Assembly (NCBI GenBank): GCA_011052365.1
Contig: DRJC01000200.1
Span: 1 to 59,156, forward strand
From: Ignavibacteria bacterium
GTDB taxonomy: Bacteria; Bacteroidota; Ignavibacteria; Ignavibacteriales; Ignavibacteriaceae
Reading direction: 5' to 3'
DNA: 59,156 nucleotides
Position 1 is the first letter of the stretch. Every line of letters begins with the position of its first letter. The notes under the pieces were generated by a model, which made no database searches, was not told where the DNA came from, and was given only the letters and a program-made list of their open reading frames with translations. Shown here piece after piece: positions 793 through 17,653 of this stretch. Both the position numbers and the translations under genes were made by a program.

Positions 793-2514
793 ATGTACGG
801 TGATTTGAAAAAAACCGGCTCTGATAAACGATACACTCTTAATTTGTGGTTTATAAAATTGAGATGGATTGCGGTAGCAATATCTTTTATTCTAATCTAT
901 CTTGCTGATTATCACTTTCATTATTTAGAAAAAGGAAGTTTTTGGCCTTTAATCTTTATAGTTTCATTTCTTTCCCTTATTAATATTATTTATAAAATTC
1001 TATTAATAAAAAGAATATTTTTTAATTTTTTAGAAAAAATACAAATATTTATTGACCTGTTAATACTTTCTCTAATGCTTCAATTTTCCGGAGGAATTGA
1101 AAACCCCCTTTCTTTTATTTATTTATTGCACGTTATTTTAAGCGGGATACTGCTTTCAAAAATTGACTGTTATAAAGTAGTTTTTATTGCCACTCTTTTT
1201 TACGCTATGATTTCTATCGGTGAATTGTATGGGGTTTTACCGCACTACACTTTATTAATATATCCGCACACAACCGAACAGAATATTGAAAATGCTGATT
1301 TGGGAACGGAAACTCATCAACATGCAGAAAATGAAAGTACACTGGTTCACGCCGCACATTACCCGTTATACGTTTGGAGCATGATTGGATTTAATTTTTT
1401 CATAATGCTGCTTACCGCCTATTTTATTACAACAATTATGGAACGTTTAAGGAACGAGGAAAGAGAAACACTGGAAAAATATCAATGGTTGCAAAAAGTT
1501 CTGCAAGCAACCGGGGCAGGGTTACTTATTTTAAATAAAAAACTAAAAGCCGAATGGATGAACGAACCGATTAAAAATTGGCTGAATATTAAAGAATTAG
1601 ATAGAGAAGAAACAGATCTAACTATCTCCGAATGGGTAAAAGAAAAACATAATGTAATTGCACAAATATTTATCGACGGAATTATAAAAACAATTGAACT
1701 TGATAAGATAACAGAAAGCGGGCAGAAACAATTTTTTCAAGTTACTGTTGCTCCATTATTCGGTGCTGATGGTGATATTTATCAAATAGTTGAACTCGTT
1801 CAGGACATCACTGATAAAAAAATATTAGAAGCCGAAATGCTTCATTCTTCTAAAATGGCAATCGTCGGTACTATGGCAGCAAGTATTGCACACGAAGTTG
1901 GAAATCCTTTATCATCTATTGCTACAAGACTAATGTTGTTGGAGAATCAAAAAGATCCTGCTTTTTTAGAAAAAAGTATTCCGCTGCTTCAGAAAGAAAT
2001 TGAAAGAATAAAAAGAATTGTAAGAGGAATCTCTCAGTTTGGGAAACCGGCAAAGGAAGTATGGAGTGTTTGTCAAATCAACAGAATAATTTCAGAAACC
2101 GTTGAAATACTAAAATACCATAAGACATCAAAAAAATGTGAAATTATTACAAGTTTAAACAACAGTTTACCACCCACCTTAGCTTCTTATGATCAACTGA
2201 AACAAGTTTTCCTCAACTTGGGACTTAACGCATTTGAATCAATGGAAAACGGGGGAACTTTGACAATTGAAACGGATTATGAAAGAGGAAACATTTTAAT
2301 TAAATTTACGGATACAGGTAAAGGAATTAATCAAAGACTTCTTGACCAAATCTTCAATCCTTTTTTCTCAACAAAGGAACAGAGTTCGGGTTTAGGTCTT
2401 TTTATAGTTTATCATATTGTTCAGGCACACGGAGGCGAGATTAAAGCATATAGCAAAACGGGTAAAGGTTCTACTTTTAAAATCTATCTGCCAATACAAC
2501 AACATTCAAAATAA
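793..2514 (+). CDS. Membrane sensor histidine kinase (multi-TM N-terminal domain, PAS-like region, HisKA + HATPase; NtrB/AtoS-like)
   Basis: About 6 hydrophobic helices in the first ~220 aa. H-box SIAHEVGNPLSSI, N-box LNLGLNAFESM, G1 DTGKGI, G2 SGLGLFIV. Lies 9 nt upstream of a sigma-54 response regulator. Confidence 0.9.
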   Translation: MYGDLKKTGSDKRYTLNLWFIKLRWIAVAISFILIYLADYHFHYLEKGSFWPLIFIVSFLSLINIIYKILLIKRIFFNFLEKIQIFIDLLILSLMLQFSGGIENPLSFIYLLHVILSGILLSKIDCYKVVFIATLFYAMISIGELYGVLPHYTLLIYPHTTEQNIENADLGTETHQHAENESTLVHAAHYPLYVWSMIGFNFFIMLLTAYFITTIMERLRNEERETLEKYQWLQKVLQATGAGLLILNKKLKAEWMNEPIKNWLNIKELDREETDLTISEWVKEKHNVIAQIFIDGIIKTIELDKITESGQKQFFQVTVAPLFGADGDIYQIVELVQDITDKKILEAEMLHSSKMAIVGTMAASIAHEVGNPLSSIATRLMLLENQKDPAFLEKSIPLLQKEIERIKRIVRGISQFGKPAKEVWSVCQINRIISETVEILKYHKTSKKCEIITSLNNSLPPTLASYDQLKQVFLNLGLNAFESMENGGTLTIETDYERGNILIKFTDTGKGINQRLLDQIFNPFFSTKEQSSGLGLFIVYHIVQAHGGEIKAYSKTGKGSTFKIYLPIQQHSK

Positions 2515-2523
2515 TTTCGATTT

Positions 2524-3879
2524 ATGGTTACAAAAATATTACTAATAGATGATGAAGAGCTTTTCAGAGAAGATTTTGCACTTCTACTTAGGAATGAAGG
2601 ATATAAATGCCTGACTGCCGCATCTGCTGAAGAAGGTCTTGAAACAGTTAAAAACGAATTCCCCGATATAATTTTTGCCGATATAGTAATGCCCGGTAAA
2701 AGCGGGATAGATATTTTGGAAGACATTAACAGAATAAATTCAGAAGGTTCCATAATAATAATGACCTCATACGGCACATTAGAAACTGCGATAAAGGCAT
2801 TCAGATTCGGAGCTATAGATTATATTTTAAAACCAATTGAGTTTGAAGAAGTATTAATTAAAATTGAAAGAATTATTCAGCACAAAAAATTATTAAATGA
2901 AGTAAAATTTTTAAGAAAAGAAGTTTTTGAAAACGCCGAAGAATTTTCTTTTGTGGGTAAAAGTGAGCCTATAAAAAACGTGAAAGAACTGATAAATAAA
3001 GTGGGACCTACAAACAGTACAGTGTTGATTAATGGAGAATCCGGTACCGGGAAAGAAGTGGTTGCCCAGGCAATTCACCAAGTAAATGATAATGCAGATA
3101 AACCGTTTATTGCAATAAATTGTTCAAGTCTACAGGAAAATTTATTAGAAAGCGAGTTGTTCGGACACGTTAAAGGAGCCTTTACAGGTGCTATTAAGGA
3201 TAAAGTAGGTTTTATGGAAGCGGCAGGAGAAGGCACAATATTTTTGGATGAAATCTCAGAAATACCGATAACTTTGCAAAGCAAACTACTGAGAGTTTTA
3301 GAACAAAGAGAATTTTATAGAGTAGGCGGAACAAAAAAATTTCCGTTAAACGCAAGAATAATTACATCCACAAATCGTAATTTAAAGGAAAGTATAAAGA
3401 ACGGTGATTTTCGTGAGGATCTATTTTATAGAATCGCTGTTTTTGAAATAGATTTAGTACCTTTAAGAAAAAGGATAGAAGATATTCCATTATTAATAGA
3501 ATATTTTATAAAAAAGTTTAATAATGAAATGAAGAAGAAATATATTAGTGTTTCTTCCGATTCTATGAAAGCTATGATGAATTATAATTGGCCTGGCAAT
3601 ATTAGAGAACTACGCAATGTAATAGAAAGAGCAATGATTTTGTGTGATGACAAAACAATTACACTAAACGGATTACCTTCCCAAATAAAAGGCACTGCAC
3701 AAATAGCTAACAAATCAAAAAGTCTAAAAACCACAATTAATCTCTATGAGAAATCCTATATTACGCAAATTCTGAAAGAAAACAACTGGAACAAAGAAGA
3801 AACTGCAAGAATACTAGAAATTAATTCTTCAACGTTGTACAGAAAAATAACTGAATTAGGAATTTCTGAAGAAAATTAA
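2524..3879 (+). CDS. Sigma-54-dependent response regulator (REC + AAA+ sigma-54 interaction domain + Fis-type HTH; NtrC family)
   Basis: REC domain (ILLIDDE...FADIVMPGKSG). Walker A GESGTGKE, ESELFGH, GAFTGA sigma-54 contact loop. C-terminal HTH ETARILEINSSTLYRKI. Confidence 0.93.
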   Translation: MVTKILLIDDEELFREDFALLLRNEGYKCLTAASAEEGLETVKNEFPDIIFADIVMPGKSGIDILEDINRINSEGSIIIMTSYGTLETAIKAFRFGAIDYILKPIEFEEVLIKIERIIQHKKLLNEVKFLRKEVFENAEEFSFVGKSEPIKNVKELINKVGPTNSTVLINGESGTGKEVVAQAIHQVNDNADKPFIAINCSSLQENLLESELFGHVKGAFTGAIKDKVGFMEAAGEGTIFLDEISEIPITLQSKLLRVLEQREFYRVGGTKKFPLNARIITSTNRNLKESIKNGDFREDLFYRIAVFEIDLVPLRKRIEDIPLLIEYFIKKFNNEMKKKYISVSSDSMKAMMNYNWPGNIRELRNVIERAMILCDDKTITLNGLPSQIKGTAQIANKSKSLKTTINLYEKSYITQILKENNWNKEETARILEINSSTLYRKITELGISEEN

Positions 3880-3895
3880 GACAACACATAAAACT

Positions 3896-3951
3896 CACTA
3901 CTCTTTATGCAAATAAAGTAACTTTGTATAAGTAACTCTTGCAAAATTGCA
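3896..3951 (+). promoter_or_regulatory. Candidate upstream activator sites for the NtrC-type regulator (two related copies)
   Basis: CACTACTCTTtaTGCAAA at 3896-3913 and AACTCTTGCAAAA at 3934-3946; the second runs into the perfect palindrome TGCAA-aa-TTGCA (3940-3951). The 12-mer ACTCTTGCAAAA recurs at 6214-6225 in the paralogous intergenic region. Confidence 0.45.
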
Positions 3952-4038: not shown

Positions 4039-4054
4039 TGGCACAGTGGTTGGT
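4039..4054 (+). promoter_or_regulatory. Sigma-54-like -24/-12 promoter candidate (TGGCAC-N5-TTGGT)
   Basis: TGGCACagtggTTGGT has GG-N10-G spacing as in the TGGCAC-N5-TTGC consensus, but the -12 position reads GG instead of GC. It lies 70 nt upstream of the ATG at 4109 and directly downstream of an NtrC-type activator gene. Confidence 0.4.
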
Positions 4055-4108: not shown

Positions 4109-4537
4109 ATGAAAAAAACAAGATCGAAACTAACCATTTTAACAGCCGTAACTGTTGCAATAGTAGCCATATTGTTCTTTTCAATTGATAATTTTGGAAA
4201 TCCGGGCGGAAGTAATTGGAAAGTACCCGGTGTAGCTAAAAAACTTAAAAACCCTGTTCCTTCTTCAAAATTATCCATCAAATTAGGTGAAAAATTATTC
4301 GTACAAAACTGTGCAACCTGCCATGGAGAAAGTGGTGTCGGTGACGGGCCCGTAGGTAAATTCTTAGGAAAGAAAGTTGCCGATTTAACATCTAAGGCAG
4401 TACAGAGTCAAGTAGACGGTGTGATATTTTATAAACTTACCAAAGGCAGAGCTCCGATGCCCTCTTATAAAACAATATTAAATACAAAACAACGCTGGTC
4501 TGTTATTAATTACATTAGAACACTTAAATCTAACTAA
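4109..4537 (+). CDS. Class I monoheme c-type cytochrome, N-terminally membrane-anchored or secreted
   Basis: N-terminal hydrophobic helix, single CATCH heme motif, downstream Met ligand region (GRAPMPSY). AGAGGA Shine-Dalgarno before the ATG. Clear paralogue of the 6390-6869 product. Confidence 0.85.
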   Translation: MKKTRSKLTILTAVTVAIVAILFFSIDNFGNPGGSNWKVPGVAKKLKNPVPSSKLSIKLGEKLFVQNCATCHGESGVGDGPVGKFLGKKVADLTSKAVQSQVDGVIFYKLTKGRAPMPSYKTILNTKQRWSVINYIRTLKSN

Positions 4538-4560
4538 TCATAAATACGGAGAAAAATAAA

Positions 4561-5688
4561 ATGAAAAGAATTCGTTTTATACTGTTTTCGGCATTGGCAA
4601 TTCTCATTGGCTCTGCTACTCAAAATCCGGCTCAAGAAAGTACTGACTTACAGAGTCAAATTCAAAAATTTCAAGCAGGTACTCATCAGTTTATGCTTGC
4701 TGGATATGCAGTTACAAGCTTTATAAAGGAAGAAGGCAATCCTTCACAATTTGAAAGTGCCTTTATGCCAATATTCTTATTTAAGGCAACAGATAAAGTA
4801 TTTTTTGAAGGTGAATTAGAAATAGAAATTGAAGATGGAGCTCAAGAAATGAATCTTGAATATGGGCAAATATTGTATTTATTTAGTGATTACCTGATTT
4901 TTGGTGCCGGAAAATTTCTTAATCCCACAAACTATTTTATTGAAAGGTTACATCCGGCTTGGATAAATAAAATGCCTGACAAACCTTTAATGGTACATCC
5001 GGGTACAAGAATGCTGGCCAGCCAACATTTAGGATTTCAATTAAGGGGTGCAGTACCTATTAAGGGTAGCAAAATAGAATACTCTTTCTTTGTTGGGATG
5101 GGACCTGTATTAGACCCTGCAACAGGTGAAGTAACATTTACAAATTATGGAGATAATAACGATAACAAATCTATTGGCGGAAGAATAGGTTTTATACCTA
5201 TTCCAAAATTTGAAATCGGATATGGTTTTGAAGTTGCTAAAGTAGGCGATGCAAATACAAATTTAGAAAGTGTTAAAGCAATAAACAATGTAGTAGATTT
5301 TTCATATGCTAAAGAAATAAAAGGACTAAAGGGCGGAGTAGATTTAAAAGCTCAATTAGTATGGCTAAATATTGATAATCCAAATATTGCACCATTAATT
5401 TACAGTAATGACTCATTTGGCGGTTATGCTCAAATTTCGTTCCGTCCATACAACTCACCAAGTGAATTCTTTCAAAATTTAGAATTCGTTTATCGTTATG
5501 ACTGGAGTGACAAACCGAATAAAGCTCCATCAAATGAATATATTAAAAGGTCTGGTTTTGGCATTAATTATTGGTTAACTTCAAGCAGCCTATTTAAATT
5601 TGCTTATGAAACATCTAATATCGATTTACCTAACGGAAGTACAACTAATGAACACCGTTTTATTGGTCAAGTTGCATTTGGTTTTTAA
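4561..5688 (+). CDS. Putative outer-membrane beta-barrel porin, no heme motif
   Basis: Signal peptide (ALAILIGSATQNPAQE), alternating hydrophobic/polar strand pattern, Gly/Tyr/Asn-rich. C-terminal ...GQVAFGF ends in Phe (OMP signature). No CxxCH. Confidence 0.6.
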   Translation: MKRIRFILFSALAILIGSATQNPAQESTDLQSQIQKFQAGTHQFMLAGYAVTSFIKEEGNPSQFESAFMPIFLFKATDKVFFEGELEIEIEDGAQEMNLEYGQILYLFSDYLIFGAGKFLNPTNYFIERLHPAWINKMPDKPLMVHPGTRMLASQHLGFQLRGAVPIKGSKIEYSFFVGMGPVLDPATGEVTFTNYGDNNDNKSIGGRIGFIPIPKFEIGYGFEVAKVGDANTNLESVKAINNVVDFSYAKEIKGLKGGVDLKAQLVWLNIDNPNIAPLIYSNDSFGGYAQISFRPYNSPSEFFQNLEFVYRYDWSDKPNKAPSNEYIKRSGFGINYWLTSSSLFKFAYETSNIDLPNGSTTNEHRFIGQVAFGF

Positions 5689-5708
5689 TTATTTAGGAGA
5701 AAACAAAA

Positions 5709-5984
5709 ATGAAATTGAAAAGGAAATACATAACCGGTTTTTTACTTGTTTTAGGCTTTTTTGTAGTAGTGGCTATTTCAGGTTGTGCATCTACAACTGA
5801 CATTGCCGATAGATCGGGTGCTGAATTATGGGGCAATAACTGCGCTAGTTGCCATAATATCCGTCCACCCCAGACTTTAACAGACGCACAATGGGAAGTT
5901 GCTGGAATTCATATGAGAACAAGAGCTAATCTTACAGGCGTAGAAACTAATAAAATAATAGAATTCTTAAAAACGGCTAACTAA
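5709..5984 (+). CDS. Small monoheme c-type cytochrome lipoprotein
   Basis: Lipobox VAISGC, single CASCH motif, 91 aa. Starts 20 nt after the barrel gene. Confidence 0.75.
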   Translation: MKLKRKYITGFLLVLGFFVVVAISGCASTTDIADRSGAELWGNNCASCHNIRPPQTLTDAQWEVAGIHMRTRANLTGVETNKIIEFLKTAN

Positions 5985-6010
5985 TTAGGGATTCTATTTG
6001 ACTCAAAAAG

Positions 6011-6040
6011 ACCGGGTGACAAAACCATCCGGTTTTTTTA
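6011..6040 (+). terminator. Rho-independent terminator closing cytochrome/porin module 1
   Basis: ACCGG...CCGG stem followed by TTTTTTTATTTT. Confidence 0.6.
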
Positions 6041-6209: not shown

Positions 6210-6235
6210 CACTACTCTTGCAAAAATGCGAGAGT
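6210..6235 (+). promoter_or_regulatory. Candidate upstream activator site, paralogous to 3896-3951
   Basis: CACTACTCTTGCAAAA contains the same 12-mer ACTCTTGCAAAA (6214-6225). It is embedded in the imperfect inverted repeat ACTCTTGC-aaaaat-GCGAGAGT (6214-6235). Confidence 0.45.
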
Positions 6236-6319: not shown

Positions 6320-6335
6320 TGGCATTAAAGTTGAT
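6320..6335 (+). promoter_or_regulatory. Sigma-54-like -24/-12 promoter candidate (TGGCAT-N5-TTGAT)
   Basis: Same block spacing as 4039-4054. Lies 106 bp downstream of the shared 12-mer and exactly 70 nt upstream of the ATG at 6390. The -12 position reads GA rather than GC. Confidence 0.4.
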
Positions 6336-6389: not shown

Positions 6390-6869
6390 ATGAACAAAAA
6401 AACGGTCTCAAGAAGTTTGCTAATATTGGCTGCAACTATAATATTCTTTGCGTCCCCAACAATAAATGCGCAGACCAATAATTGGAAAGCTCCAAAAATT
6501 GCTGATAGACTTAAAAACCCATTAAAAGGAGATCTTTCAGCGGTTAAAAAAGGCAAAGAATTATTTGATATAAATTGTGTTACTTGCCACGGTGCAAAAG
6601 GATTAGGAGATGGTATTGCAGCATCAAGTTTATTTCCAAAACCTGCAAATTTAACTTCTAAAGAAGTTCAAAAACAATCTGACGGTGCTATTTATTATAA
6701 GATTACAAAGGGAAAAAACGCCATGATATCATGGAAGTATTCATTATCAGAAAAACAACGCTGGCAATTAGTTAGTTACATAAGGGAATTAGTACCTCAT
6801 AAGGCAAAGGTTAAAGTTAAAAAATCAACAGCCAAAAATGTAAAACTTAAAAAGAAAACTAAGATATAG
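6390..6869 (+). CDS. Class I monoheme c-type cytochrome (paralogue of 4109-4537) with a Lys-rich C-terminal tail
   Basis: Signal peptide ending INAQT, CVTCH motif, NWKAPK...LKNP... aligns with the 4109 product. The ORF track starts at TTG 6375; ATG 6390 is preferred because it reproduces the 70-nt promoter-ATG spacing of the paralogue. Confidence 0.85.
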   Translation: MNKKTVSRSLLILAATIIFFASPTINAQTNNWKAPKIADRLKNPLKGDLSAVKKGKELFDINCVTCHGAKGLGDGIAASSLFPKPANLTSKEVQKQSDGAIYYKITKGKNAMISWKYSLSEKQRWQLVSYIRELVPHKAKVKVKKSTAKNVKLKKKTKI

Positions 6870-6928: not shown

Positions 6929-8263
6929 ATGAATAATATTTATAAAACCAAAATTCAATTTATAGCTATTGCTGCTCTTATACTATCTTTTATAATTCCA
7001 GAAGAAGCATCAGCCATACCAAGTTTCTCCCGCCAAACAAATCTGCCTTGCAGCACTTGTCACTACAAATTTCCCGAATTAAAACCTTTCGGCAGATTAT
7101 TTAAATTGAACGGTTATACAATGACAGGTGTAGCATCTATTAAATCAGCCAATAATGACAAAATAAATCTCCAACTCTTAAAATCACTACCAATTTCGGT
7201 AAGTTTTCAAACATCATATACTTCAGTAGCTTCAAAAGTTCCTGACAATCAGAACAACACGTTTGAATTTCCACAAGAATTAGGTATCTATTTTGCAGGA
7301 GAAATTACTCCTCATATTGGTGCTTTTATTCAAATTAGTTATGAAGATCAAGAAGGTTCAATTGGATTAGATATGACGGATATTCGTTACGCTAATCATA
7401 CATCTATTGACAATAAAGATTTATTATACGGAGTTAGTTTAAACAACTCACCAACAATGCAAGACGTTTGGGGTACCGTACCAATGTGGTCTTATCCATT
7501 TGTTGGTTCAGGCACAGCTCCTACACCAATGATCAGCACCATGTTAGAGTCTATGATGAACGTATTGGGTTTTGGAACGTATGTGTTGTATGACAACTTC
7601 ATATACGCTGAAGTAAGTGCTTATCGTTCTGTTGTACAGGGAGGACCTATACCTCCAAATGCATCTTCGTCTAATACAATCAGTGCCCTTGCACCATATT
7701 GGAGATTAGCGTTACAGCATCAATGGGAAAATCAATATATTGAAGTTGGAACATACGGAATGGCTCCACAGATTTTTCCTAGTGGGATTACAGGAAAAAA
7801 AGATAATTATACAGACTTCGCATTAGATGCACAATATGAGAACTCGTTCAATAACGGTAGTCTAATAACACATTTTAATTACATATATGAAAAACGGAAT
7901 TTAAATGCCACTTATGCTTCCGGTGGTTCGGCTAGCTTATCAAATACTCTTAATTCTCTAAAAGTTGATGCGGGTTATAACTCTAATGCGGGTTACTCAT
8001 TTACTGTTGGGTACTTCAATATAAATGGAGATGCCGATAACAAATTATACGCACCTGCCCAGGTGGAAGGAAGCGTTAGCGGTTCGCCGAACAGTAACGG
8101 ATTTACATTGCAGGCAACTTTAGCCCCTTGGCTTAATACTCAATTCTCATTGCAATATGTATTGTATAATAAATTTAACGGTTCAAGCGATAATTACGAT
8201 GGGAACGGAAGAAATGCATCCGATAATAATACTTTGTATGCAAATGTATGGCTTATGTTCTAA
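6929..8263 (+). CDS. Fused monoheme cytochrome-porin (Cyc2-like architecture)
   Basis: Signal peptide (…EEASA), then IPSFSRQTNLPCSTCHYKFPELKPFGRLFKLNGYTMTG with a single CxxCH at residues ~41-45. About 390 aa of Gly/Tyr/Asn/Ser-rich beta-strand-like sequence follows, ending ...NVWLMF (terminal Phe). Confidence 0.65.
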   Translation: MNNIYKTKIQFIAIAALILSFIIPEEASAIPSFSRQTNLPCSTCHYKFPELKPFGRLFKLNGYTMTGVASIKSANNDKINLQLLKSLPISVSFQTSYTSVASKVPDNQNNTFEFPQELGIYFAGEITPHIGAFIQISYEDQEGSIGLDMTDIRYANHTSIDNKDLLYGVSLNNSPTMQDVWGTVPMWSYPFVGSGTAPTPMISTMLESMMNVLGFGTYVLYDNFIYAEVSAYRSVVQGGPIPPNASSSNTISALAPYWRLALQHQWENQYIEVGTYGMAPQIFPSGITGKKDNYTDFALDAQYENSFNNGSLITHFNYIYEKRNLNATYASGGSASLSNTLNSLKVDAGYNSNAGYSFTVGYFNINGDADNKLYAPAQVEGSVSGSPNSNGFTLQATLAPWLNTQFSLQYVLYNKFNGSSDNYDGNGRNASDNNTLYANVWLMF

Positions 8264-8351: not shown

Positions 8352-8382
8352 AAAACGACCGGATTTTTTCGGTCGTTTTTTT
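8352..8382. terminator. Bidirectional hairpin terminator between convergent genes
   Basis: AAAACGACCG-gatttttt-CGGTCGTTTT, with A-run and T-run on either side. Confidence 0.65.
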
Positions 8383-9577
8383 ATGTCTGATTTTTAGCCA
8401 CTTGTAGTATTTTAGGCAGATAATAAAGACTTAAAATAAAAATGATTGCTGTAAATGCAGCACCGGTTAAGAAAGGATATTGATAACCGATATATTCAAA
8501 AGCAAAGCCGCCCCACAAAGGACCCAATACTCTTGCAAACGCTGAGAAAGATTGGTTGACACCGAGGGTAAATCCCTGTTCGCTTTCGGACGTGTTCTTA
8601 GATATCAGGCTTAACATTGTCGGTTGAAGACTTCCACTACCCAAAGCAAGTATAATCGTTACAAAAATAAGTCCGGTCATGTTACCGGCATACGGTACCA
8701 TTGCAAGACCAAGCATCATAAGAAATGATCCGGCGACAATAATCTTTTTATCATCCATATATTTTGATATAACACGCAGCAGTCCACCTTGAACTATAGC
8801 TGAAACAATACCGATAATACCGAACATAATACCGTTTTGCATATCGGTAAAGTGATATTTTTTATAACCGATTAATGCAAATGTTCCGTATATGTTTGCG
8901 ATTGAGAAAACAAGAATAAAAAACATTATAATAAGTGATGCTAATTTATTGTTTCTAAACAATAATTTTACGGCAGGTATGTCAATTAATTTTCTTGTCT
9001 TAATCCTAATTCCATCTTTAATTTTTTTCAAAGATTCGGGTAAGAAAAAGATAGTAAATAAGAAGGCAATAAATGAAAAAGCAGCACTTGCAAACCCTGT
9101 TACCTCATATCCGTATTTTGAAAGGAATCCTCCTATAATTGGTCCGAATACAAATCCCAAACCAAAAGCAGCTCCAATCATACCCATTCCTTTGGAGCGA
9201 TCTTCTTTTGATGTAACATCAGCTATATATGCTTGAGCAACGGCAACACTACTGCCACCAATTCCGGCAACTATACGCGATACTAACAGCAGCAAAAAAG
9301 AATTTGTAAATGCAAAAATTATATAACCGACGGCATTTAGAAACAGACAACCTATAATTATAGGACGCCTTCCTACTCTGTCCGAAAGGTTACCAAGGAT
9401 AGGACCTAAAAGAAATTGAGTAAGCGAATAAACCGCAAGTACAATTCCGATTGAGAATTCGCTTAAGTTTAATTTGATAGTGGCAAAGGTTGGTAAAATG
9501 GGTATAAGAATACCGAAACCTAAGAGGTCTATAAAAACCGTAATAAATATTAATGAAAGTGAAGCTTTTCTGTTCAA
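8381..9577 (-). CDS. MFS transporter (12-TM, TetA/drug-H+ antiporter-like)
   Basis: Hydrophobic throughout. MFS motif A-like GNLSDRVGRRP between TM2 and TM3. TTG start codon. Confidence 0.85.
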   Translation of the reverse strand: MNRKASLSLIFITVFIDLLGFGILIPILPTFATIKLNLSEFSIGIVLAVYSLTQFLLGPILGNLSDRVGRRPIIIGCLFLNAVGYIIFAFTNSFLLLLVSRIVAGIGGSSVAVAQAYIADVTSKEDRSKGMGMIGAAFGLGFVFGPIIGGFLSKYGYEVTGFASAAFSFIAFLFTIFFLPESLKKIKDGIRIKTRKLIDIPAVKLLFRNNKLASLIIMFFILVFSIANIYGTFALIGYKKYHFTDMQNGIMFGIIGIVSAIVQGGLLRVISKYMDDKKIIVAGSFLMMLGLAMVPYAGNMTGLIFVTIILALGSGSLQPTMLSLISKNTSESEQGFTLGVNQSFSAFARVLGPLWGGFAFEYIGYQYPFLTGAAFTAIIFILSLYYLPKILQVAKNQT

Positions 9578-9702
9578 CTTATTTCTCTAGTAACCAAACT
9601 TTTTCGCAGTATTAGTTTGAATTGTGTTTTCTAAATAAGAATTCATATTAAAAAATTTTAGCCATAAAGATACAAATATATTTCCAAATATTGGATATGT
9701 TG

Positions 9703-10836
9703 TTACTTGTCTATAACCGGTAAGTCGCTGTAAGATTTTAATTTTTCGTTGGTATCTTCAAAAGATTGAAGCATTTCCTTAAAAGTAGAATCGTTAAAAA
9801 ATTGATAAATTGGAGAAGTGTAATAATATGTGGAAGGAATAATTACAAATTCATTTTTATACTTGGTTTTTCCTTTAAAAACATAGGTCGGTAAATAATC
9901 AATATTTGAAACTATAGACTTTCCGCTCTTAAAATCTTTTTTAATCTTAATAGTAAGAATTACTCCCCCGTTTGAATAACGCCACCTCTGATTTGATATA
10001 AAATTGCCTAAAGAATAAGCAACAAATGTACGTCTATCTTTTTTGTCAATAAATTTTATTGGTTGAACAACGTGCGGATGCGAACCAATGATTATATCCG
10101 CTCCATAATTTAATGTCGAGTCTACTACTTCTTTCTGATATTTACTTGGTTCTCTCTTGTATTCTTTACCAAAATGATAATATACAATGATCATATCCGC
10201 ATCTTTCTCTTTTGATTTTTGAATATCATTTTTAATTTTTTTAAAGTTTATTCTGTTGATTAGGTATTCTTTACCTTTGGGAATTCTATTTCCATTAGTT
10301 CCGTAGGTATAACTCAAGATTGATAATTTGATTCCGTTTATATCAATTATTTTTACAGAGTCTCTTTCTGCTTTTGTTAATGATGTACCGCTGTAAAGCA
10401 TATTGTTTTTCTTAATCTGTTCAATAGTTCTTCTTAAACCGTATTCTCCCTTATCTAAGGAATGATTATTCGCCGTTATTAATAAATCAAAACCGGTGTA
10501 TTTTAAGGCAGTTAAATATTCATCAGGTGAATTAAATAAAGGATATCCGCTGTAATTTATGGAATCACCTCCCAACACTGTTTCAAGGTTTCCAACTGTT
10601 AAATCCGCTTGACTCAAATAATCTTTAACATACCTGTAAACCGGCTTAAAATTATAAGTTGAATCTTTTAGCATAGCATATTTTAATTGAGTAGAATGAC
10701 CCATTAAATCACCGACAAATGTGATTGTTGCCGTTGTTGTTGAATCAAGTAATAAAATATTAGATTTGATTTTATTAGCTTTAGTTGTAAAACTAAAGAC
10801 TAATATGAATATGAATATAGTTTGTATTTTATTCAT
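9703..10836 (-). CDS. CapA/PGA_cap family metallophosphatase-like protein (poly-gamma-glutamate capsule synthesis family)
   Basis: FVGDLMGHS, GNLETVL, ANNHSLDKGEYG, GADIIIGSHPHVVQP, YSLGNFISNQ. Start placed at ATG 10836, which gives a clean signal peptide MNKIQTIFIFILVF; the ORF track TTG at 10869 is also possible. Confidence 0.8.
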   Translation of the reverse strand: MNKIQTIFIFILVFSFTTKANKIKSNILLLDSTTTATITFVGDLMGHSTQLKYAMLKDSTYNFKPVYRYVKDYLSQADLTVGNLETVLGGDSINYSGYPLFNSPDEYLTALKYTGFDLLITANNHSLDKGEYGLRRTIEQIKKNNMLYSGTSLTKAERDSVKIIDINGIKLSILSYTYGTNGNRIPKGKEYLINRINFKKIKNDIQKSKEKDADMIIVYYHFGKEYKREPSKYQKEVVDSTLNYGADIIIGSHPHVVQPIKFIDKKDRRTFVAYSLGNFISNQRWRYSNGGVILTIKIKKDFKSGKSIVSNIDYLPTYVFKGKTKYKNEFVIIPSTYYYTSPIYQFFNDSTFKEMLQSFEDTNEKLKSYSDLPVIDK

Positions 10837-10905: not shown

Positions 10906-11094
10906 TTATTTATTTGCCTTTCTCTGTGCTTTTAACTCTTGTATACCCTTTCTTAGTTCTTGAGCATCTTTCCTTAATTGGCTCAAGCCTTTTCTTAAAC
11001 GAGTACCTGCAGCAGCTTGTCCCTTAACATAGAATTTCTCAAAATCATTTTCCATATTATGAACAGACTGTAAAAGGTCTTCATATTGTTGCAT
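10906..11094 (-). CDS. Histone H1-like (Hc1-type) small basic nucleoid protein
   Basis: 62 aa. KGQAAAGTRLRKGLSQLRKDAQELRKGIQELK matches my memory of the Bacteroidetes/Chlamydia histone H1-like family. Confidence 0.6.
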   Translation of the reverse strand: MQQYEDLLQSVHNMENDFEKFYVKGQAAAGTRLRKGLSQLRKDAQELRKGIQELKAQRKANK

Positions 11095-11125: not shown

Positions 11126-13132
11126 TTATTTAGTGTTTTCCAATATTATTTCAGCTATATCTTTTACTTTAACTTCTTCTGACTTTTCAAAATGTTTAAC
11201 ACCGTCTGTAATCATTGTCATGCAAAAAGGACAAGCAGATGCAATAGTATCAGCACCGGTTGCCAAGGCTTCTTTTGTCCTTTCAATGTTGATTCTTCCT
11301 CCTTCCTCATCTTCAAGAAACATCCTTCCACCGCCTGCACCACAGCAAAATCCACGTGTTTTGTTCCTTTTCATTTCAATATAATTGATTTTTTCGACTT
11401 TTCCCAATGAATTTCGAGGAGAATCAAAAATATTATTATATCTGCCTAAGTAGCAAGAATCGTGATAAGTAACATCCATAGCTGTTTCATCCACATTATC
11501 ACTCAATTCCAATTTACCTTCATTCAGCATTTCTTCAATTAATTCAGTGTGGTGAAGCACCTCAAAGTTTCCGCCGAACTGTTTATATTCATTTTTTAGC
11601 GAATGAAAACAATGCGGGCAAGCAGTAACTATCTTTTTAACGTTATAACCATTCAGCTTTTCTATGTTGTCCTTCATCAAAGTTTGGGCAAGATATTCGT
11701 TACCCAATCTTCTTGCAGTATCACCGTTACATTTTTCTTCAGTTCCTAAAATTCTAAAATCAATATTACCCTTCTGCATCAGTTTGGCAAAAGCTTTTGT
11801 AACCTTTTGATAGCGTGCATCAAAAGAACCTGCACAACCCACCCAAAATAGAATCTCACCATCCGAATCTTGAGCCATAGTTTTTATGTCCATTCCTTCC
11901 GCCCAGTTGGCTCTGTCAGCAGAGTTAAAAGCCCAGGGTGTATAGTTTGTTTCAAGGCTTTTAAATACATTATTTAAATTTGATGGAAATTGAGCTTCAG
12001 TAAGTACAAGGTCTCTTCTCATATCAACTATAGAATCAACGTGCTCAATCATAACCGGACACTCTTGTACACACGCCATACAAGTTGTACACTGCCAAAG
12101 ATTTAAATCGGGTATATAATCGTGTACCAACGTTTTGCTCATCACCTCTTCATTCTCAATTCCGTTAGCGAGCAAATGGGCTTTATCCTTTGTACGTTTT
12201 CTTATTTGCACTATTACTTCTCTCGGTGAAAGCGATTTACCAACAGTAGCAGCCGGACAAACAGATTCACATCTTCCGCATTCCGTGCAGGAATATCCAT
12301 CCAGAATTTGTTTCCAGGAAAGATGTTCAATGTCTGCTACGCCAAAAGTTTCCAGATTTTCATCTTCTAAATCTATAGGTTTTAGAGTATTTCTAACATC
12401 GCTTAAATTGGAAAAGAAAGTATTCGGAATTGAAGTTAACACGTGTAAGTGTTTTGAATATGGTAAATAATTTAAAAAACCTAAAACTACTACTATGTGC
12501 ATCCACCAAAAAACTTCGTGAGCCGTACCTGCAGCTCCTATATTGCCTGAGTATATTAGCTTACTCAACGGCAATGCAATAAAATTCATTTGGTTGGGAA
12601 GAAGGTTAAAATTATTTTGGGCAATTAATGCCGTACTTTGCCCGAACATTGAAAGTACAACGAGAAAAATTAATGAAAGAATAAGTAAGGCATCAAGTTT
12701 ACCGGCTTTACCCACTTCCAGCCTTGGTACTTTAATAACTACTCTCCTGTATATTGCAACAAGTACAGCAAGCATTACAAGAGCACCAAAAATATCTTCT
12801 ATAAAAGTTACAAGGCTGTAGAAAAAGCCGGTCGATTCATAGTTAAACGACGGAAAGAAACCCTGGATTAATGCTTCGACAACGGCAAAAAGGAAGAGTA
12901 AAAAACCCCAAAATATAAGTGAATGCAAAATTCCTGCTAACCGGAAACGGAATAATTTTTTTTGACCTATCGCATATTTTAATACATTAAGTAACCTTGT
13001 TCCGATTTTGTTTAATCTGTTATCTGCTTTTTTTGCAACGAACATATAGCGGATTAAATTTCTGGAGCTATAAAAGAAAAATCCGAATGCTAAAATAAAT
13101 ATGATTAAAAAAACTATGTTCTTTGTGTCCAT
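11126..13132 (-). CDS. Membrane-bound (Fe-S) oxidoreductase: NarI/DsrM-like heme-b membrane domain fused to an HdrD/DsrK/GlpC-like 2x[4Fe-4S] + CCG domain
   Basis: About 5-6 N-terminal TM helices with conserved His. Ferredoxin motifs CTECGRCESVCP and CTTCMACVQECP. Two Cys-rich CCG-type regions (…VGCAGSF…, …FCCGAGGG…CPFC). Confidence 0.8.
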   Translation of the reverse strand: MDTKNIVFLIIFILAFGFFFYSSRNLIRYMFVAKKADNRLNKIGTRLLNVLKYAIGQKKLFRFRLAGILHSLIFWGFLLFLFAVVEALIQGFFPSFNYESTGFFYSLVTFIEDIFGALVMLAVLVAIYRRVVIKVPRLEVGKAGKLDALLILSLIFLVVLSMFGQSTALIAQNNFNLLPNQMNFIALPLSKLIYSGNIGAAGTAHEVFWWMHIVVVLGFLNYLPYSKHLHVLTSIPNTFFSNLSDVRNTLKPIDLEDENLETFGVADIEHLSWKQILDGYSCTECGRCESVCPAATVGKSLSPREVIVQIRKRTKDKAHLLANGIENEEVMSKTLVHDYIPDLNLWQCTTCMACVQECPVMIEHVDSIVDMRRDLVLTEAQFPSNLNNVFKSLETNYTPWAFNSADRANWAEGMDIKTMAQDSDGEILFWVGCAGSFDARYQKVTKAFAKLMQKGNIDFRILGTEEKCNGDTARRLGNEYLAQTLMKDNIEKLNGYNVKKIVTACPHCFHSLKNEYKQFGGNFEVLHHTELIEEMLNEGKLELSDNVDETAMDVTYHDSCYLGRYNNIFDSPRNSLGKVEKINYIEMKRNKTRGFCCGAGGGRMFLEDEEGGRINIERTKEALATGADTIASACPFCMTMITDGVKHFEKSEEVKVKDIAEIILENTK

Positions 13133-14762: not shown

Positions 14763-15122
14763 ATGCCTGAAGAAAAAGACCTAATATGTGAAACAACTTT
14801 TATTGATGAAAACAAAGTCAATAGAGTGAAAAAACAATTACCCGAAGAAGATATTCTGTTGGGATTATCTGAAATTTTTAAAGTCTTAGGTGATTCTACT
14901 CGATTAAAAATTTTATTATCGATTTCATATACTGAACTTTGTGTGTGTGATATCTCTGCTTTAATTGGAGTATCTGTTTCTGCAATATCACATCAATTAA
15001 GATTGTTGAAAAATTCACGTTTAGTTAAATACCGAAAAGAAGGTAAAATGGTTTATTATTCTTTAAAGGATGATCATATAAAAAGTATAGTGAATGAAGC
15101 AAGGAAACACGTTGAAGAATAA
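14763..15122 (+). CDS. cadC: ArsR/SmtB family metalloregulator, CadC-like
   Basis: ELCVCDISALIGVSVSAISHQLRLL carries the alpha3 thiolate site plus wHTH. There is an additional N-terminal Cys (LICE). It is followed by a P1B-2 ATPase. Confidence 0.8.
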   Translation: MPEEKDLICETTFIDENKVNRVKKQLPEEDILLGLSEIFKVLGDSTRLKILLSISYTELCVCDISALIGVSVSAISHQLRLLKNSRLVKYRKEGKMVYYSLKDDHIKSIVNEARKHVEE

Positions 15123-15197
15123 ATGGAAATACAAATCTCTATAAAATTACAGTATTAATAACCGAAGTGAAATCTCAACTTATAAAAGGATCATTAT

Positions 15198-15548
15198 ATG
15201 AAATATATTCCAAAACTTATTTTACCGCTTTTAATTATTACGATTATCGGAATAGTTTATTACAGTTACTTTAAACCGAATGATGAATTGGGAAATTTTA
15301 GCAAATTTAATACCGGTAGTGAAATTAATCAGAAAATTAACGTAGCAATAGTTAGAACTAAGATGATGCGAGAAGATGCAAATGGAATGATTATTTCTTT
15401 TGTTGCAAAAGATAAAAATAATGTAGAGGTGATTGTTAATATACGCGAACCGGCTCCTGAAAAAATTATGAATGCAAAGGTGATTGAACTTTTGGGACAT
15501 TTACACAAAGAGGGTTTCTCCGCTGTGAGAGCCACAATAATCAGGTAA
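15198..15548 (+). CDS. Small membrane-anchored protein of unknown function (tentatively CcmE-like OB-fold)
   Basis: One N-terminal TM helix followed by ~85 aa of beta-rich sequence. Sits between the regulator and the ATPase. No heme-binding His/Tyr tail seen. Confidence 0.35.
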   Translation: MKYIPKLILPLLIITIIGIVYYSYFKPNDELGNFSKFNTGSEINQKINVAIVRTKMMREDANGMIISFVAKDKNNVEVIVNIREPAPEKIMNAKVIELLGHLHKEGFSAVRATIIR

Positions 15549-15553
15549 GATAA

Positions 15554-17653
15554 ATGAAAAATTATAAATTAAAAAATATGAGCTGTGCATCCTGTGCAGC
15601 AAAGATTGAAGATGGAGTTGCAAAATTAGAAGGAGTAAAATTTGTTTCCGTTAACTTTGCAGCTTCAACAATTAAAATCGAGACCGACAATATAGAAAAA
15701 GTAAAAAAGAAAATAAAACAAATTGAACCGGATGTAGAAATAGTTGATGAAACTTTAAACCGGGAAGAAACAGAAGATAAGTTCAGTATAAAAAAAGAAC
15801 TCTTCAAGATTACAGTGATTATAGCACTTTTAATTGTAGCCATAATATATAAAGATTCGTTGCACAATACTACCTATTCTATTGCAGAATATATTGTTTT
15901 TATTTCTATATACCTGCTGAGCGGATGGAATGTTTTAAAAACTGCGGGAAGAAATATTATAAGGGGACAGGTTTTTAACGAACAATTTCTGATGTCCATT
16001 GCAACTTTGGGAGCCTTTGCTATCCACGAAATGCCGGAAGCTGTTGCCGTTATGGTGTTTTTTAATGTCGGTGAGTTTTTTCAAAATCTTGCAGTACATC
16101 GCTCACGAAGATCAATTAAAAGTTTATTGGAAATACGACCCGATTCCGCCAACGTTTTTATAAACGGCGAAGTAAAGGAAGTCTCACCGGATGAAGTTAA
16201 TGTTGGAGATAAAATATTAATTAAACCCGGAGAAAAAATTCCTTTAGACGGTGATGTACTGGAAGGAAAGTCAATGGTTGATACTTCTGCGCTTACAGGT
16301 GAGTCCGTTCCGCGTCACGTTAAAAAGGGTGAGCCCGTTATGGCCGGTATGATTAACAAATCAGGCACATTAACTGTTATTGTAAAAAAACTGTTCGGTG
16401 AATCTTCCATCTCAAAAATTTTGGACCTTGTTGAAAATGCAACATCTAAAAAATCAAAGACAGAAAAATTTATAACAAAGTTTGCCCGTTATTACACACC
16501 CGCCGTTGTTATAGGTGCAATTCTCGTTGCAGTATTACCTCCACTATTGTTTGAGGGACAGTTGTTTTCTGTGTGGATATACAGGGCATTAATTATGCTT
16601 GTTGTTTCCTGCCCTTGTGCTTTGGTTATTAGTATTCCCCTCGGTTATTTTGGTGGTATCGGCGGGGCATCACATAAGGGGATATTGGTTAAAGGTTCTA
16701 ATTATTTGGATACGCTTACTGAAATTAAAGAAGTGGTCTTTGATAAAACCGGGACACTAACAAAAGGTGAATTCAAAGTCTCCGAAATTATTCCAAATAA
16801 TAATTTTAATAAAGATGAAGTTTTAGAACTTGCAGCTTATGCCGAATCTAATTCAAATCATCCGATAGCACAATCTATTATAGAAGCATACAATGGAAAT
16901 ATTAAGCAACAAGAAATTGTCAAAGTTTCAGAGATTGCCGGACAAGGAATTGAAGCAAGGGTGGACGGCAGAATTATTATCGCCGGCAACGATAAACTTC
17001 TTCACAATAAAAATATTACACACGATAAATGTAATATAGAAGGAACAGTAGTTCATATTGCAGTAGATAACAAGTATGCGGGTTACATTGTAATTTCAGA
17101 CAGTATTAAAGAAGACTCCGTTACAGCCATTAAAGACCTAAAGAAACTGGGCGTAAAAAAAACGATTATGCTTACGGGAGATAATTCTTTTGCCGCTAAA
17201 AAAATAGCTGATAGTTTAAACATTGATGAATTCTATGCGGAATTATTACCTGAAGATAAAGTAAAGTATATAGAAAAATCACTATCTCAAGCCGGGAAAA
17301 ATGAAAAGATTGCCTTTGTTGGTGACGGTATAAACGATGCACCTGTTTTAGCTCGTGCTGACGTTGGAATAGCAATGGGCGCACTTGGTTCCGATGCTGC
17401 GGTAGAAACTGCCGATGTGGTTCTTATGAATGATACCCTTGCGAGCGTTCCTATGGCAATAAGAATTGCTAAAAAAACCCGCAAGATAGTTTGGCAGAAT
17501 ATTATTTTTGCTCTCGTTGTAAAACTGCTGTTTATAATTCTTGCAGCATTCGGTATAGCAACAATGTGGGAAGCGGTATTCGGCGATATGGGTGTGGCAT
17601 TAATTGCAATTTTTAATGCTATGAGAGTAAGAAATATTCAGAATAATCTTTAA
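15554..17653 (+). CDS. cadA: P1B-2-type heavy-metal (Zn/Cd/Pb) translocating ATPase
   Basis: N-terminal HMA domain MSCASCAAKIE. TM6 SCPCALVISIP (CPCx4SxP), DKTGTLT, SNHPIA, GDGINDAP. TM7 Nx7K (NIIFALVVK) and TM8 DxGx7N (DMGVALIAIFN) are the signatures of the P1B-2 subgroup. Confidence 0.93.
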   Translation: MKNYKLKNMSCASCAAKIEDGVAKLEGVKFVSVNFAASTIKIETDNIEKVKKKIKQIEPDVEIVDETLNREETEDKFSIKKELFKITVIIALLIVAIIYKDSLHNTTYSIAEYIVFISIYLLSGWNVLKTAGRNIIRGQVFNEQFLMSIATLGAFAIHEMPEAVAVMVFFNVGEFFQNLAVHRSRRSIKSLLEIRPDSANVFINGEVKEVSPDEVNVGDKILIKPGEKIPLDGDVLEGKSMVDTSALTGESVPRHVKKGEPVMAGMINKSGTLTVIVKKLFGESSISKILDLVENATSKKSKTEKFITKFARYYTPAVVIGAILVAVLPPLLFEGQLFSVWIYRALIMLVVSCPCALVISIPLGYFGGIGGASHKGILVKGSNYLDTLTEIKEVVFDKTGTLTKGEFKVSEIIPNNNFNKDEVLELAAYAESNSNHPIAQSIIEAYNGNIKQQEIVKVSEIAGQGIEARVDGRIIIAGNDKLLHNKNITHDKCNIEGTVVHIAVDNKYAGYIVISDSIKEDSVTAIKDLKKLGVKKTIMLTGDNSFAAKKIADSLNIDEFYAELLPEDKVKYIEKSLSQAGKNEKIAFVGDGINDAPVLARADVGIAMGALGSDAAVETADVVLMNDTLASVPMAIRIAKKTRKIVWQNIIFALVVKLLFIILAAFGIATMWEAVFGDMGVALIAIFNAMRVRNIQNNL

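Follow-up and report, generated by a model that had tools for sequence, protein, structure and literature searches.

Cyc2 proteins are defined by a signal peptide, one CXXCH heme motif, a 16-strand porin and a length of at least 365 amino acids (aa) (PMC8406198, Keffer et al. 2021), and every Cyc2 that has been assayed biochemically oxidizes Fe(II) (PMC8406198, PMC13647500). Via FeGenie, Cyc2 is widely used as a marker gene for microbial iron oxidation. Here, we analyzed a 59,156-nucleotide stretch of an Ignavibacteria bacterium genome (assembly GCA_011052365.1, contig DRJC01000200.1; the whole stretch is called the window hereafter), which encodes a Cyc2-like protein of 444 aa at positions 6929..8263. 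The window offers nothing new in kind. It is a clean and complete example with a likely partner cytochrome, regulator and promoters, and its main value lies in the comparative wiring of the clade, in the question of the direction of electron flow and in a neighboring second module of cytochromes and a porin.

Like the Cyc2 of Acidithiobacillus ferrooxidans (Cluster 2), the outer-membrane Fe(II) oxidase of the rus operon, the window protein has a porin of about 400 aa behind a signal peptide and a single N-terminal CXXCH. Acidithiobacillus Cyc2 and the window protein both carry RQT, whereas Cluster 3 has RKY, and a c-type cytochrome gene adjoins both the A. ferrooxidans and the window gene, either 5' or 3'. 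Unlike A. ferrooxidans, the window host is of neutrophile type, AT-rich and Ignavibacteria-like. Its cluster lacks rusticyanin, an aa3 oxidase and cyc1 (a diheme c4), and the proposed partner is a monoheme ActE/c552-like protein. FSR replaces the FAR of A. ferrooxidans Cyc2, and the proposed control is by a sigma54 two-component system.

Cluster 1 Cyc2 (Cyc2PV-1, Gallionellaceae, Chlorobium ferrooxidans) shares with the window protein the fused architecture, the predicted 16-strand barrel and a signature of the AxPxFARQT type, but has one more residue between CXXCH and FP in the printed alignment, which is machine-read and noisy. Its hosts are established lithoautotrophic or phototrophic iron oxidizers, a lifestyle not known for the clade of the window protein. 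An initial annotation of this DNA had mentioned homologues in Chlorobi-type lineages; the Chlorobium sequences fall in this different cluster. The pathway model for Zetaproteobacteria resembles other loci of the clade in its association with cytochromes c and alternative complex III (ACIII). Cyt572 of Leptospirillum, like Cluster 3 in general, is also a fused monoheme cytochrome-porin of similar length, but Cluster 3 has FARKY and a different post-heme block, and by its signature the window protein does not belong there. Cluster 3 reportedly dominated the FeGenie iron-oxidation calls at the DeMMO sites D2-D6.

MtrAB, MtoAB and PioAB are likewise outer-membrane conduits made of a beta-barrel and a c-type cytochrome. 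In these systems a separate decaheme cytochrome sits in a 26-strand barrel and can reach solids, whereas the window protein has one heme fused to a 16-strand barrel. An MtrAB-like complex was considered for the window and rejected, given the 16 strands, the single CxxCH in every cytochrome of the cluster and the absence of a multiheme gene from it.

A fused monoheme cytochrome-porin with the Cyc2 signature

The protein encoded at 6929..8263 very probably belongs to the Cyc2 family and has the architecture of an electron conduit. Its gene and product have these features:

6929..7015 (+), aa 1-29: signal peptide, read from the sequence, with cleavage inferred after ASA and a helix at aa 2-21 in the AlphaFold2 (AF2) model
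7016..7117 (+), aa 30-63: cytochrome domain AIPSFSRQTNLPCSTCHYKFPELKPFGRLFKLNGY (counted from A29, the last signal-peptide residue), placed by the signature of PMC8406198
7049..7063 (+), aa 41-45: heme motif CSTCH, within the cytochrome domain
7193..8263 (+), aa 89-444 and stop: 16-strand beta-barrel porin domain, from AF2 model m00f3776af284 and Foldseek
8352..8379 (+): terminator-like hairpin 3' of the Cyc2-like gene, between convergent genes

The gene is an ATG open reading frame (ORF) of 444 codons on the (+) strand, with an AGGAG ribosome-binding site 8 nucleotides (nt) 5' of its start at 6929; the strand opposite 6929-8263 has many stops and no open frame. A single CxxCH occupies the same place in 203 of 205 relatives, PxL stands at H+4 in 198/203 and the terminal residue is F in 190/203. 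Because these three features are near-invariant across the relatives, the ORF is not a product of chance. More than 2683 database proteins match the Cyc2-like protein, and three public assemblies contain an identical protein, with no Pfam match on record. The best relatives come from Ignavibacteria-type metagenome-assembled genomes (MAGs), namely BMS3Abin03 (80% identity), MNBD_IGNAVI01 (79%) and Melioribacteraceae (66-67%).

The N-terminus reads MNNIYKTKIQFIAIAALILSFIIPEEASA up to the inferred cleavage site and IPSFSRQTNLPCSTCHYKFPELKPFGRLFKLNGY beyond it, so that the mature part begins IPSF. By inspection, K6 and K8 lie in the n-region, aa 9-23 form a 15-residue h-region and PEEASA is the c-region, with alanine at -3 and -1 (AXA type); together these read as a standard Sec signal. 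CSTCH starts 12 residues past the inferred cleavage site, and its C41 and C44 are the sole cysteines of the protein. In the barrel part (aa 87-444), S (10.6%), N (10.3%), G (8.4%) and Y (7.3%) are abundant, and the C-terminus NVWLMF is beta-signal-like with F as its final residue. The initial annotation had described a 444-aa ORF at these positions with a cleavable signal peptide, a single CSTCH about 12 residues past cleavage and a Gly/Tyr/Asn/Ser-rich stretch ending in NVWLMF, and each of these points agrees with what we see, the signal peptide by its three regions and by the AF2 helix.

Searches of Pfam, NCBIfam and PDB sequences with the protein and with the family profile returned no match, these libraries holding no Cyc2 model or structure, and the identification therefore follows the published Cyc2 definition. 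Membership criteria were taken from McAllister 2020, Keffer 2021 and FeGenie, whose length rule is at least 365 aa, with most members at 400 aa or more; the window protein is above the limit. The motif AXPXFAR[Q/K][T/Y] on the N-terminal side of the heme site is called unique to Cyc2, and a PXL motif four residues past the heme site is a further Cyc2 feature (PMC8406198). The window signature, AIPSFSRQT-NLP-CSTCH-YKF-PEL, agrees with the former at 8/9 positions, with one conservative change from A to S, and its PEL places proline at H+4 as the PXL rule asks. The consensus of 69 relatives, AIPSFARQT, matches the published motif at 9/9 positions; FSRQT is a minority variant (37/203 relatives), and both FSR and FTR occur among accepted Cyc2 sequences in Suppl. 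Fig. 9 of PMC9769843.

The same figure supplied the reference N-terminal blocks, as machine-read and noisy text. As printed, these are ALPSFARQTGYSCAACHTS-FPQLTPMGRMFKLLGY for A. ferrooxidans Cyc2, AIPAFARQTGAACLSCH...FPLLNAFGR.FKAAGY for Mariprofundus ferrooxydans PV-1 and AMPQFARKYNFPCAFCH... for Leptospirillum (PMC9769843). The window cytochrome block is identical to the family consensus at 30/35 residues, to the A. ferrooxidans string at 21/35 (N-terminal block only) and to the Leptospirillum string at 14/35. Identity to the Acidithiobacillus fragment P0404 (64 aa, ALPTFARQTGWSCATCHTSYPQLTPMGRMFKLL) is 18/33 and to the PV-1 string 10/17 up to the heme histidine, in both cases for the N-terminal block only. 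A three-residue spacer to the first cysteine is common to the window, Acidithiobacillus, Caballeronia and Acidiphilium sequences.

A link to the published phylogeny comes from locus L046, a contig of the Bacteroidota MAG Dive100_bin10.60. The protein encoded there shares 48% identity with the window protein over aa 24-444 (25/35 in the cytochrome block) and carries the N-terminus of the entry 'Dive100_bin10.60, Bacteroidota' in the Cyc2 alignment and phylogeny of PMC9769843 (Suppl. Fig. 9). According to the text of that paper, Bacteroidota Cyc2 sequences fall in Cluster II, together with A. ferrooxidans Cyc2. The window protein is thus probably of the Cluster 2 type, with a cytochrome domain that appears nearest to that of Acidithiobacillus as far as the N-terminal block is compared. 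A tblastn search against plasmids gave full-length matches in Ralstonia, Caballeronia, Paraburkholderia and Acidiphilium (29-36% identity, E 1e-49 to 1e-79). When translated, the Caballeronia match has the exact Cyc2 signature and spacing, and the Acidiphilium match has alanine for the motif arginine. Cyc2 homologs have been noted in Ralstonia and Burkholderia (PMC8406198) and in Burkholderiales and Rhodospirillales (PMC10654088).

The AF2 model, built on a 69-sequence alignment, has a mean predicted local distance difference test (pLDDT) score of 81.8 and a predicted template modelling (pTM) score of 0.80; it places 16 long strands in the stretch aa 89-443. Its top Foldseek matches are the 16-strand porins Omp-Pst, OmpU/OmpT and OmpF/OmpC (E ~1e-9, target-normalised TM-score ~0.6). 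These general porins and OprO/OprP are the best structural matches to the window barrel, but they lack a heme domain and have no detectable sequence similarity to the window protein; the same kind of porin structural homology has been given for Cyc2 (PMC8406198). The predicted fold is a closed 16-strand porin, as the initial annotation had expected of a Cyc2. Its Cyc2-like reading is further supported by the signature with its one A to S change, by the N-terminal likeness to Acidithiobacillus and by the presence of the L046 protein in a published Cyc2 tree.

The window protein is part of a large clade of Ignavibacteria, Bacteroidota and Gemmatimonadota. Among representatives at 50% identity, the family profile matches 4994 at E <= 1e-3 and 672 at E <= 1e-30; the best 150 of them reach only E = 1e-89, and the names of ten of these are informative no further than Gammaproteobacteria, Burkholderiales and Thiotrichaceae. 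In species-representative genomes, at least 581 stretches encode a relative. Relatives are spread across Ignavibacteria, Melioribacteraceae, Bacteroidota, Kryptoniota, Calditrichota, Zixibacteria, Gemmatimonadota, Binatia and some Proteobacteria. Cyc2 homologs have been surveyed before in Ignavibacteriaceae, described as Fe(III)-reducing taxa (PMC6344600), in Ignavibacteriales and Zixibacteria (PMC8478452), and in Bacteroidota, Gemmatimonadota and Calditrichota (PMC9769843). At survey level this kind of Cyc2 is already known in the lineage, and the window is a further example. The host is non-proteobacterial, as the initial annotation had stressed, but in view of these surveys the lineage is less unusual than its title implied.

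Wiring of the clade and direction of electron flow

Gene neighborhoods were counted over the best 80 of the at least 581 stretches, all of them close relatives of the window protein. A small monoheme cytochrome c is the immediate same-strand neighbor of the Cyc2-like gene in 47/80 loci, and in 16/80 a homolog of the window cytochrome cyt164 lies directly upstream of it, as it does in the window. Genes for a Rieske protein and a cytochrome b fused to a diheme cytochrome c occur within 6.5 kb in 13-14/80 loci (L002, L006, L007, L014, L016, L033, L036, L037, L054 and others), in the order cyc2 - cytochrome c - Rieske - cytochrome b/c in L002 and L007. In a second kind of operon, found in 9-10/80 loci (for example L017-L019, L023, L025, L026, L029 and L035), the complex is ACIII/Qrc-like, with multiheme, molybdopterin-like, 4Fe-4S and NrfD-type subunits; here the Cyc2-like gene heads genes for a cytochrome c, a pentaheme cytochrome, a molybdopterin-like protein, an FeS protein and NrfD. 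Together, the two kinds of complex lie within 6.5 kb in at least 23/80 loci. The clade is consistently wired to periplasmic c-type carriers and quinone-level complexes, which supports a role as conduit without giving its direction.

Other arrangements were also seen. On the Caballeronia plasmid pSBC1_3 (L082, 4930-7947), the Cyc2 homolog lies between the gene for a high-potential iron-sulfur protein (HiPIP) and that for a diheme c4-type cytochrome c. This compact layout resembles known iron-oxidation clusters; the plasmid is 734 kb long and belongs to a soil Burkholderiaceae strain. In L005 (3944-5284 and 9609-10949), L006, L031 and L078, two Cyc2-like paralogs stand 2-6 kb apart, each with its own small cytochrome c. 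L008 encodes, 1.2 kb from its Cyc2-like gene, a protein of 375 aa (9248-10375, (-) strand) with the N-terminus YSIPRFALMMGGTCSDCH, one CxxCH just past the signal peptide and a porin-like C-terminus, ...LQFHFYY. This protein may be a shorter, divergent cytochrome-porin fusion.

Based on the architecture and synteny, we infer that the window protein would be exported by the Sec pathway and receive its heme at C41/C44, that its C-terminal 356 residues would form a 16-strand barrel in the outer membrane, and that the heme peptide of about 35 residues would be kept at the pore or inside it. The single heme could then take up an electron from a dissolved redox species outside the cell, most probably Fe2+, and this electron would pass to the co-transcribed periplasmic cyt164 and on to a respiratory chain encoded elsewhere in the genome. 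Fe2+ is proposed because every assayed Cyc2 oxidizes Fe(II) and because hydrothermal-vent and bacterium BMS3Abin MAG assemblies are the sources named for the closest relatives. The adjacent PAS kinase and sigma54 regulator would probably switch on expression, and apparently also control the upstream module of cyt142, por375 and lipocyt91. We lean, with modest confidence, towards this reading as a whole, with Fe(II) oxidation as the direction. The initial annotation was right to caution that the substrate cannot be read from the sequence, and the same holds for the direction of electron flow.

Several observations weigh against this reading. Owing to FSR in place of FAR, the window protein fails the literal expression PXFAR[Q/K][T/Y] that served as a filter in PMC8406198, and model confidence is poor in the heme domain and the linker (aa 23-38 and 67-86 have pLDDT < 50). 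Genes for a terminal oxidase, a bc complex or carbon fixation are absent from the window. Across the window as a whole, the sigma54 pattern shows no enrichment (18 matches, with 18.2 expected), so that the case for sigma54 promoters is one of placement and symmetry only. Organoheterotrophs predominate among the hosts of the clade, and some of the hosts have Fe(III) reducers as relatives (PMC6344600, PMC9769843); the linkage to quinol:cytochrome c oxidoreductases fits an outward flow equally well. Such a flow would run from quinol through a bc or ACIII complex to a small cytochrome c, the porin-held heme and a soluble acceptor outside the cell (chelated Fe(III), humic quinones or Mn(III), for example), or the protein could be a bidirectional valve; we regard either as possible, if on the unlikely side. 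At the loci near Rieske/cytochrome b or ACIII/Qrc-like genes (at least 23/80), the genes mostly share a strand and follow the order cyc2 - cytochrome c - complex, as is usual for a respiratory branch and its terminal enzyme. The hosts are largely organoheterotrophs without carbon-fixation pathways (PMC9769843), Ignavibacteriaceae with Cyc2 homologs are described as Fe(III)-reducing (PMC6344600), and homologs of Clusters 2 and 3 may have other functions (PMC8406198). All assayed Cyc2 proteins oxidize Fe(II), however, and Cyc2PV-1, with a potential of +208 mV (PMC8406198), would be a poor reductant of Fe(III) oxides at neutral pH. Solid minerals are out of reach for a single buried heme, and the known outward conduits are multiheme cytochromes in 26-strand porins. 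Since Fe(II) oxidizers also need bc/ACIII complexes to run electron flow in reverse, the synteny fits both directions alike.

Fe(II) might instead be oxidized at the surface for protection or as a redox signal and not for energy, keeping Fe2+ from the periplasm and reducing Fenton chemistry where a vent habitat is rich in iron, which we consider improbable. The gene does lie in a regulated accessory cluster and not beside an oxidase, an ArsR regulator and a heavy-metal P-type ATPase are encoded 6.5 kb away, and many Cyc2 homologs occur in bacteria that are not known to grow on iron (Ralstonia, Burkholderiaceae). Yet in related loci the gene is often closely linked to respiratory complexes and to dedicated cytochromes c, which points to an energy-conserving flow, and no direct evidence for a protective role exists for any Cyc2. 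The protein could also be no more than a general diffusion porin or a channel for heme/iron uptake without a part in electron transfer, its CxxCH being incidental or heme its cargo; in our view the chance of this is very small. All Foldseek matches are general diffusion porins, and the empty Pfam, NCBIfam and PDB sequence searches would suit such a protein, but the 35-residue heme block is its most conserved part (exactly one CxxCH in 203/205 relatives, the heme-stabilizing PxL in 198/203), the signature matches proteins shown to be Fe(II)-oxidizing cytochromes, and cytochromes c are the commonest neighbors.

The direction of electron flow matters beyond this locus. A very large share of Cyc2 homologs is found in heterotrophic Ignavibacteria, Bacteroidota and Gemmatimonadota, as judged from the representatives that match the clade profile, and whether these proteins are inlets or outlets decides how metagenomic claims of 'iron-oxidation potential' read for these phyla. 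It is unlikely, in our estimate, that the clade is no marker of iron oxidation but a respiratory outlet or two-way valve, connected by small monoheme cytochromes to bc- or ACIII-type complexes and, in the window, co-regulated by a single sigma54 two-component system with a second type of conduit formed by cyt142, por375 and lipocyt91.

The gene cluster and its candidate control

The Cyc2-like gene is the last of seven genes on the same strand, in the order kinase, regulator, cyt142, por375, lipocyt91, cyt164 and Cyc2-like. The elements upstream of it are:

793..2514 (+): sensor histidine kinase (PAS, HisKA, HATPase_c; Pfam), the first gene of the cluster
2524..3879 (+): NtrC-type sigma54-dependent response regulator (Response_reg, Sigma54_activat, HTH_8; Pfam, Sigma54_activat E = 3e-67)
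3935..3950 (+): 16-mer ACTCTTGCAAAATTGC, candidate activator-binding site, copy 1 (direct repeat family D10; function inferred)
4039..4054 (+): -24/-12-like element TGGCACagtggTTGGt, sigma54-type, 55 nt before the cyt142 ATG, 1 mismatch
4109..4537 (+): cyt142, class I monoheme cytochrome c (Pfam Cytochrom_C, Cytochrome_CBB3)
4561..5688 (+): por375, heme-free 16-strand OprO/OprP-like outer-membrane porin (homolog names/PF07396, AF2, Foldseek)
5709..5984 (+): lipocyt91, lipoprotein (lipobox AISGC) and monoheme cytochrome c (sequence; weak Pfam cytochrome c matches)
6005..6039 (+): terminator-like hairpin with T-run, 3' of lipocyt91, at the end of the first transcription unit
6214..6229 (+): 16-mer ACTCTTGCAAAAATGC, candidate activator-binding site, copy 2 (D10; 15/16 identical to copy 1)
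6320..6335 (+): -24/-12-like element TGGCATtaaagTTGAt, sigma54-type, 55 nt before the cyt164 ATG (6390), 2 mismatches
6390..6869 (+): cyt164, periplasmic class I monoheme cytochrome c (Pfam), 159 aa long when started at the 6390 ATG

Public gene calls also start cyt164 at the 159-aa ATG. Its PDB sequence matches are cytochrome c552 and the ACIII subunit ActE (6btm_E, E = 6e-12), and we propose it as the redox partner of the Cyc2-like protein. It is a paralog of cyt142 (46% identical). The C-terminus of cyt164 (6795-6866) is a strongly basic, Lys-rich tail, PHKAKVKVKKSTAKNVKLKKKTKI, which cyt142 lacks; this tail could anchor the protein to an acidic surface or to the porin.

The hairpins 3' of lipocyt91 and 3' of the Cyc2-like gene suggest two transcription units, and one layout precedes both: the 16-mer, ACTCTTGCAAAA(T/A)TGC, followed after 104 or 106 nt by a -24/-12-like element and after exactly 55 nt by the ATG. 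The two elements read TGGCAC-N5-TTGG and TGGCAT-N5-TTGA, with copy 1 of the 16-mer 104 nt upstream of the former and copy 2 106 nt upstream of the latter. This arrangement is consistent with the adjacent two-component system driving both cytochrome units. Among related loci, pairs of a histidine kinase and a sigma54 regulator adjoin Cyc2-like genes in 11/80, the strict sigma54 pattern occurs in only 3/82 upstream regions, and the 16-mer has loose look-alikes only.

A horizontally acquired island was considered and is unsupported. GC content is uniform across the window (0.30-0.37), which is AT-rich as in the initial annotation, and the flanks are housekeeping genes: the remainder of the window is ordinary chromosome with genes such as those for tRNA synthetases, RNase Y, TsaD and glycogen synthase.

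A second cytochrome/porin module and nearby genes

The AF2 model of por375 has 16 long strands (pLDDT 87.7), and its Foldseek matches are general porins, OprO (4rjw) and OprP (2o4v). Homologs of por375 carry PF07396 or the name OprO/OprP family porin. The possibility that por375 is a heme-less paralog of the Cyc2 barrel was rejected (hhalign probability <1%). The PDB matches of lipocyt91 to 'lipoprotein cytochrome c' are weak.

Three proteins of 563-588 aa (P0300, P0307 and P0321) combine a por375-like porin with a cyt142-like domain fused N-terminally to it; P0321 is a Verrucomicrobiales protein and thus from another phylum. In L087 (325-2418), a fused cytochrome-porin gene is followed by a lipocyt91 homolog (53% identical). 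Based on this Rosetta-stone evidence, cyt142, por375 and lipocyt91 (4109-5984) appear to form a module that is conserved in distant bacteria, of which at least one belongs to another phylum. In this module, which has no sequence relationship to Cyc2, a monoheme cytochrome and a porin are coupled in a second way. We met no description of it in the literature, though no search was aimed at one.

Three further observations concern genes downstream of the cluster. At 11126-13132 (-), a 668-aa protein with two CCG domains and a 4Fe-4S dicluster domain is HdrD/GlpC-like. Beside it, at ~10906-11094 (-), lies a 62-aa ORF that public calls name histone H1-like Hc1 (PF07432). Finally, the stretch at 14763-17653 (+), 6.5 kb downstream of the cytochrome cluster, encodes an ArsR-family regulator, a 116-aa ORF without a Pfam match and a heavy-metal P-type ATPase (HMA, E1-E2_ATPase).

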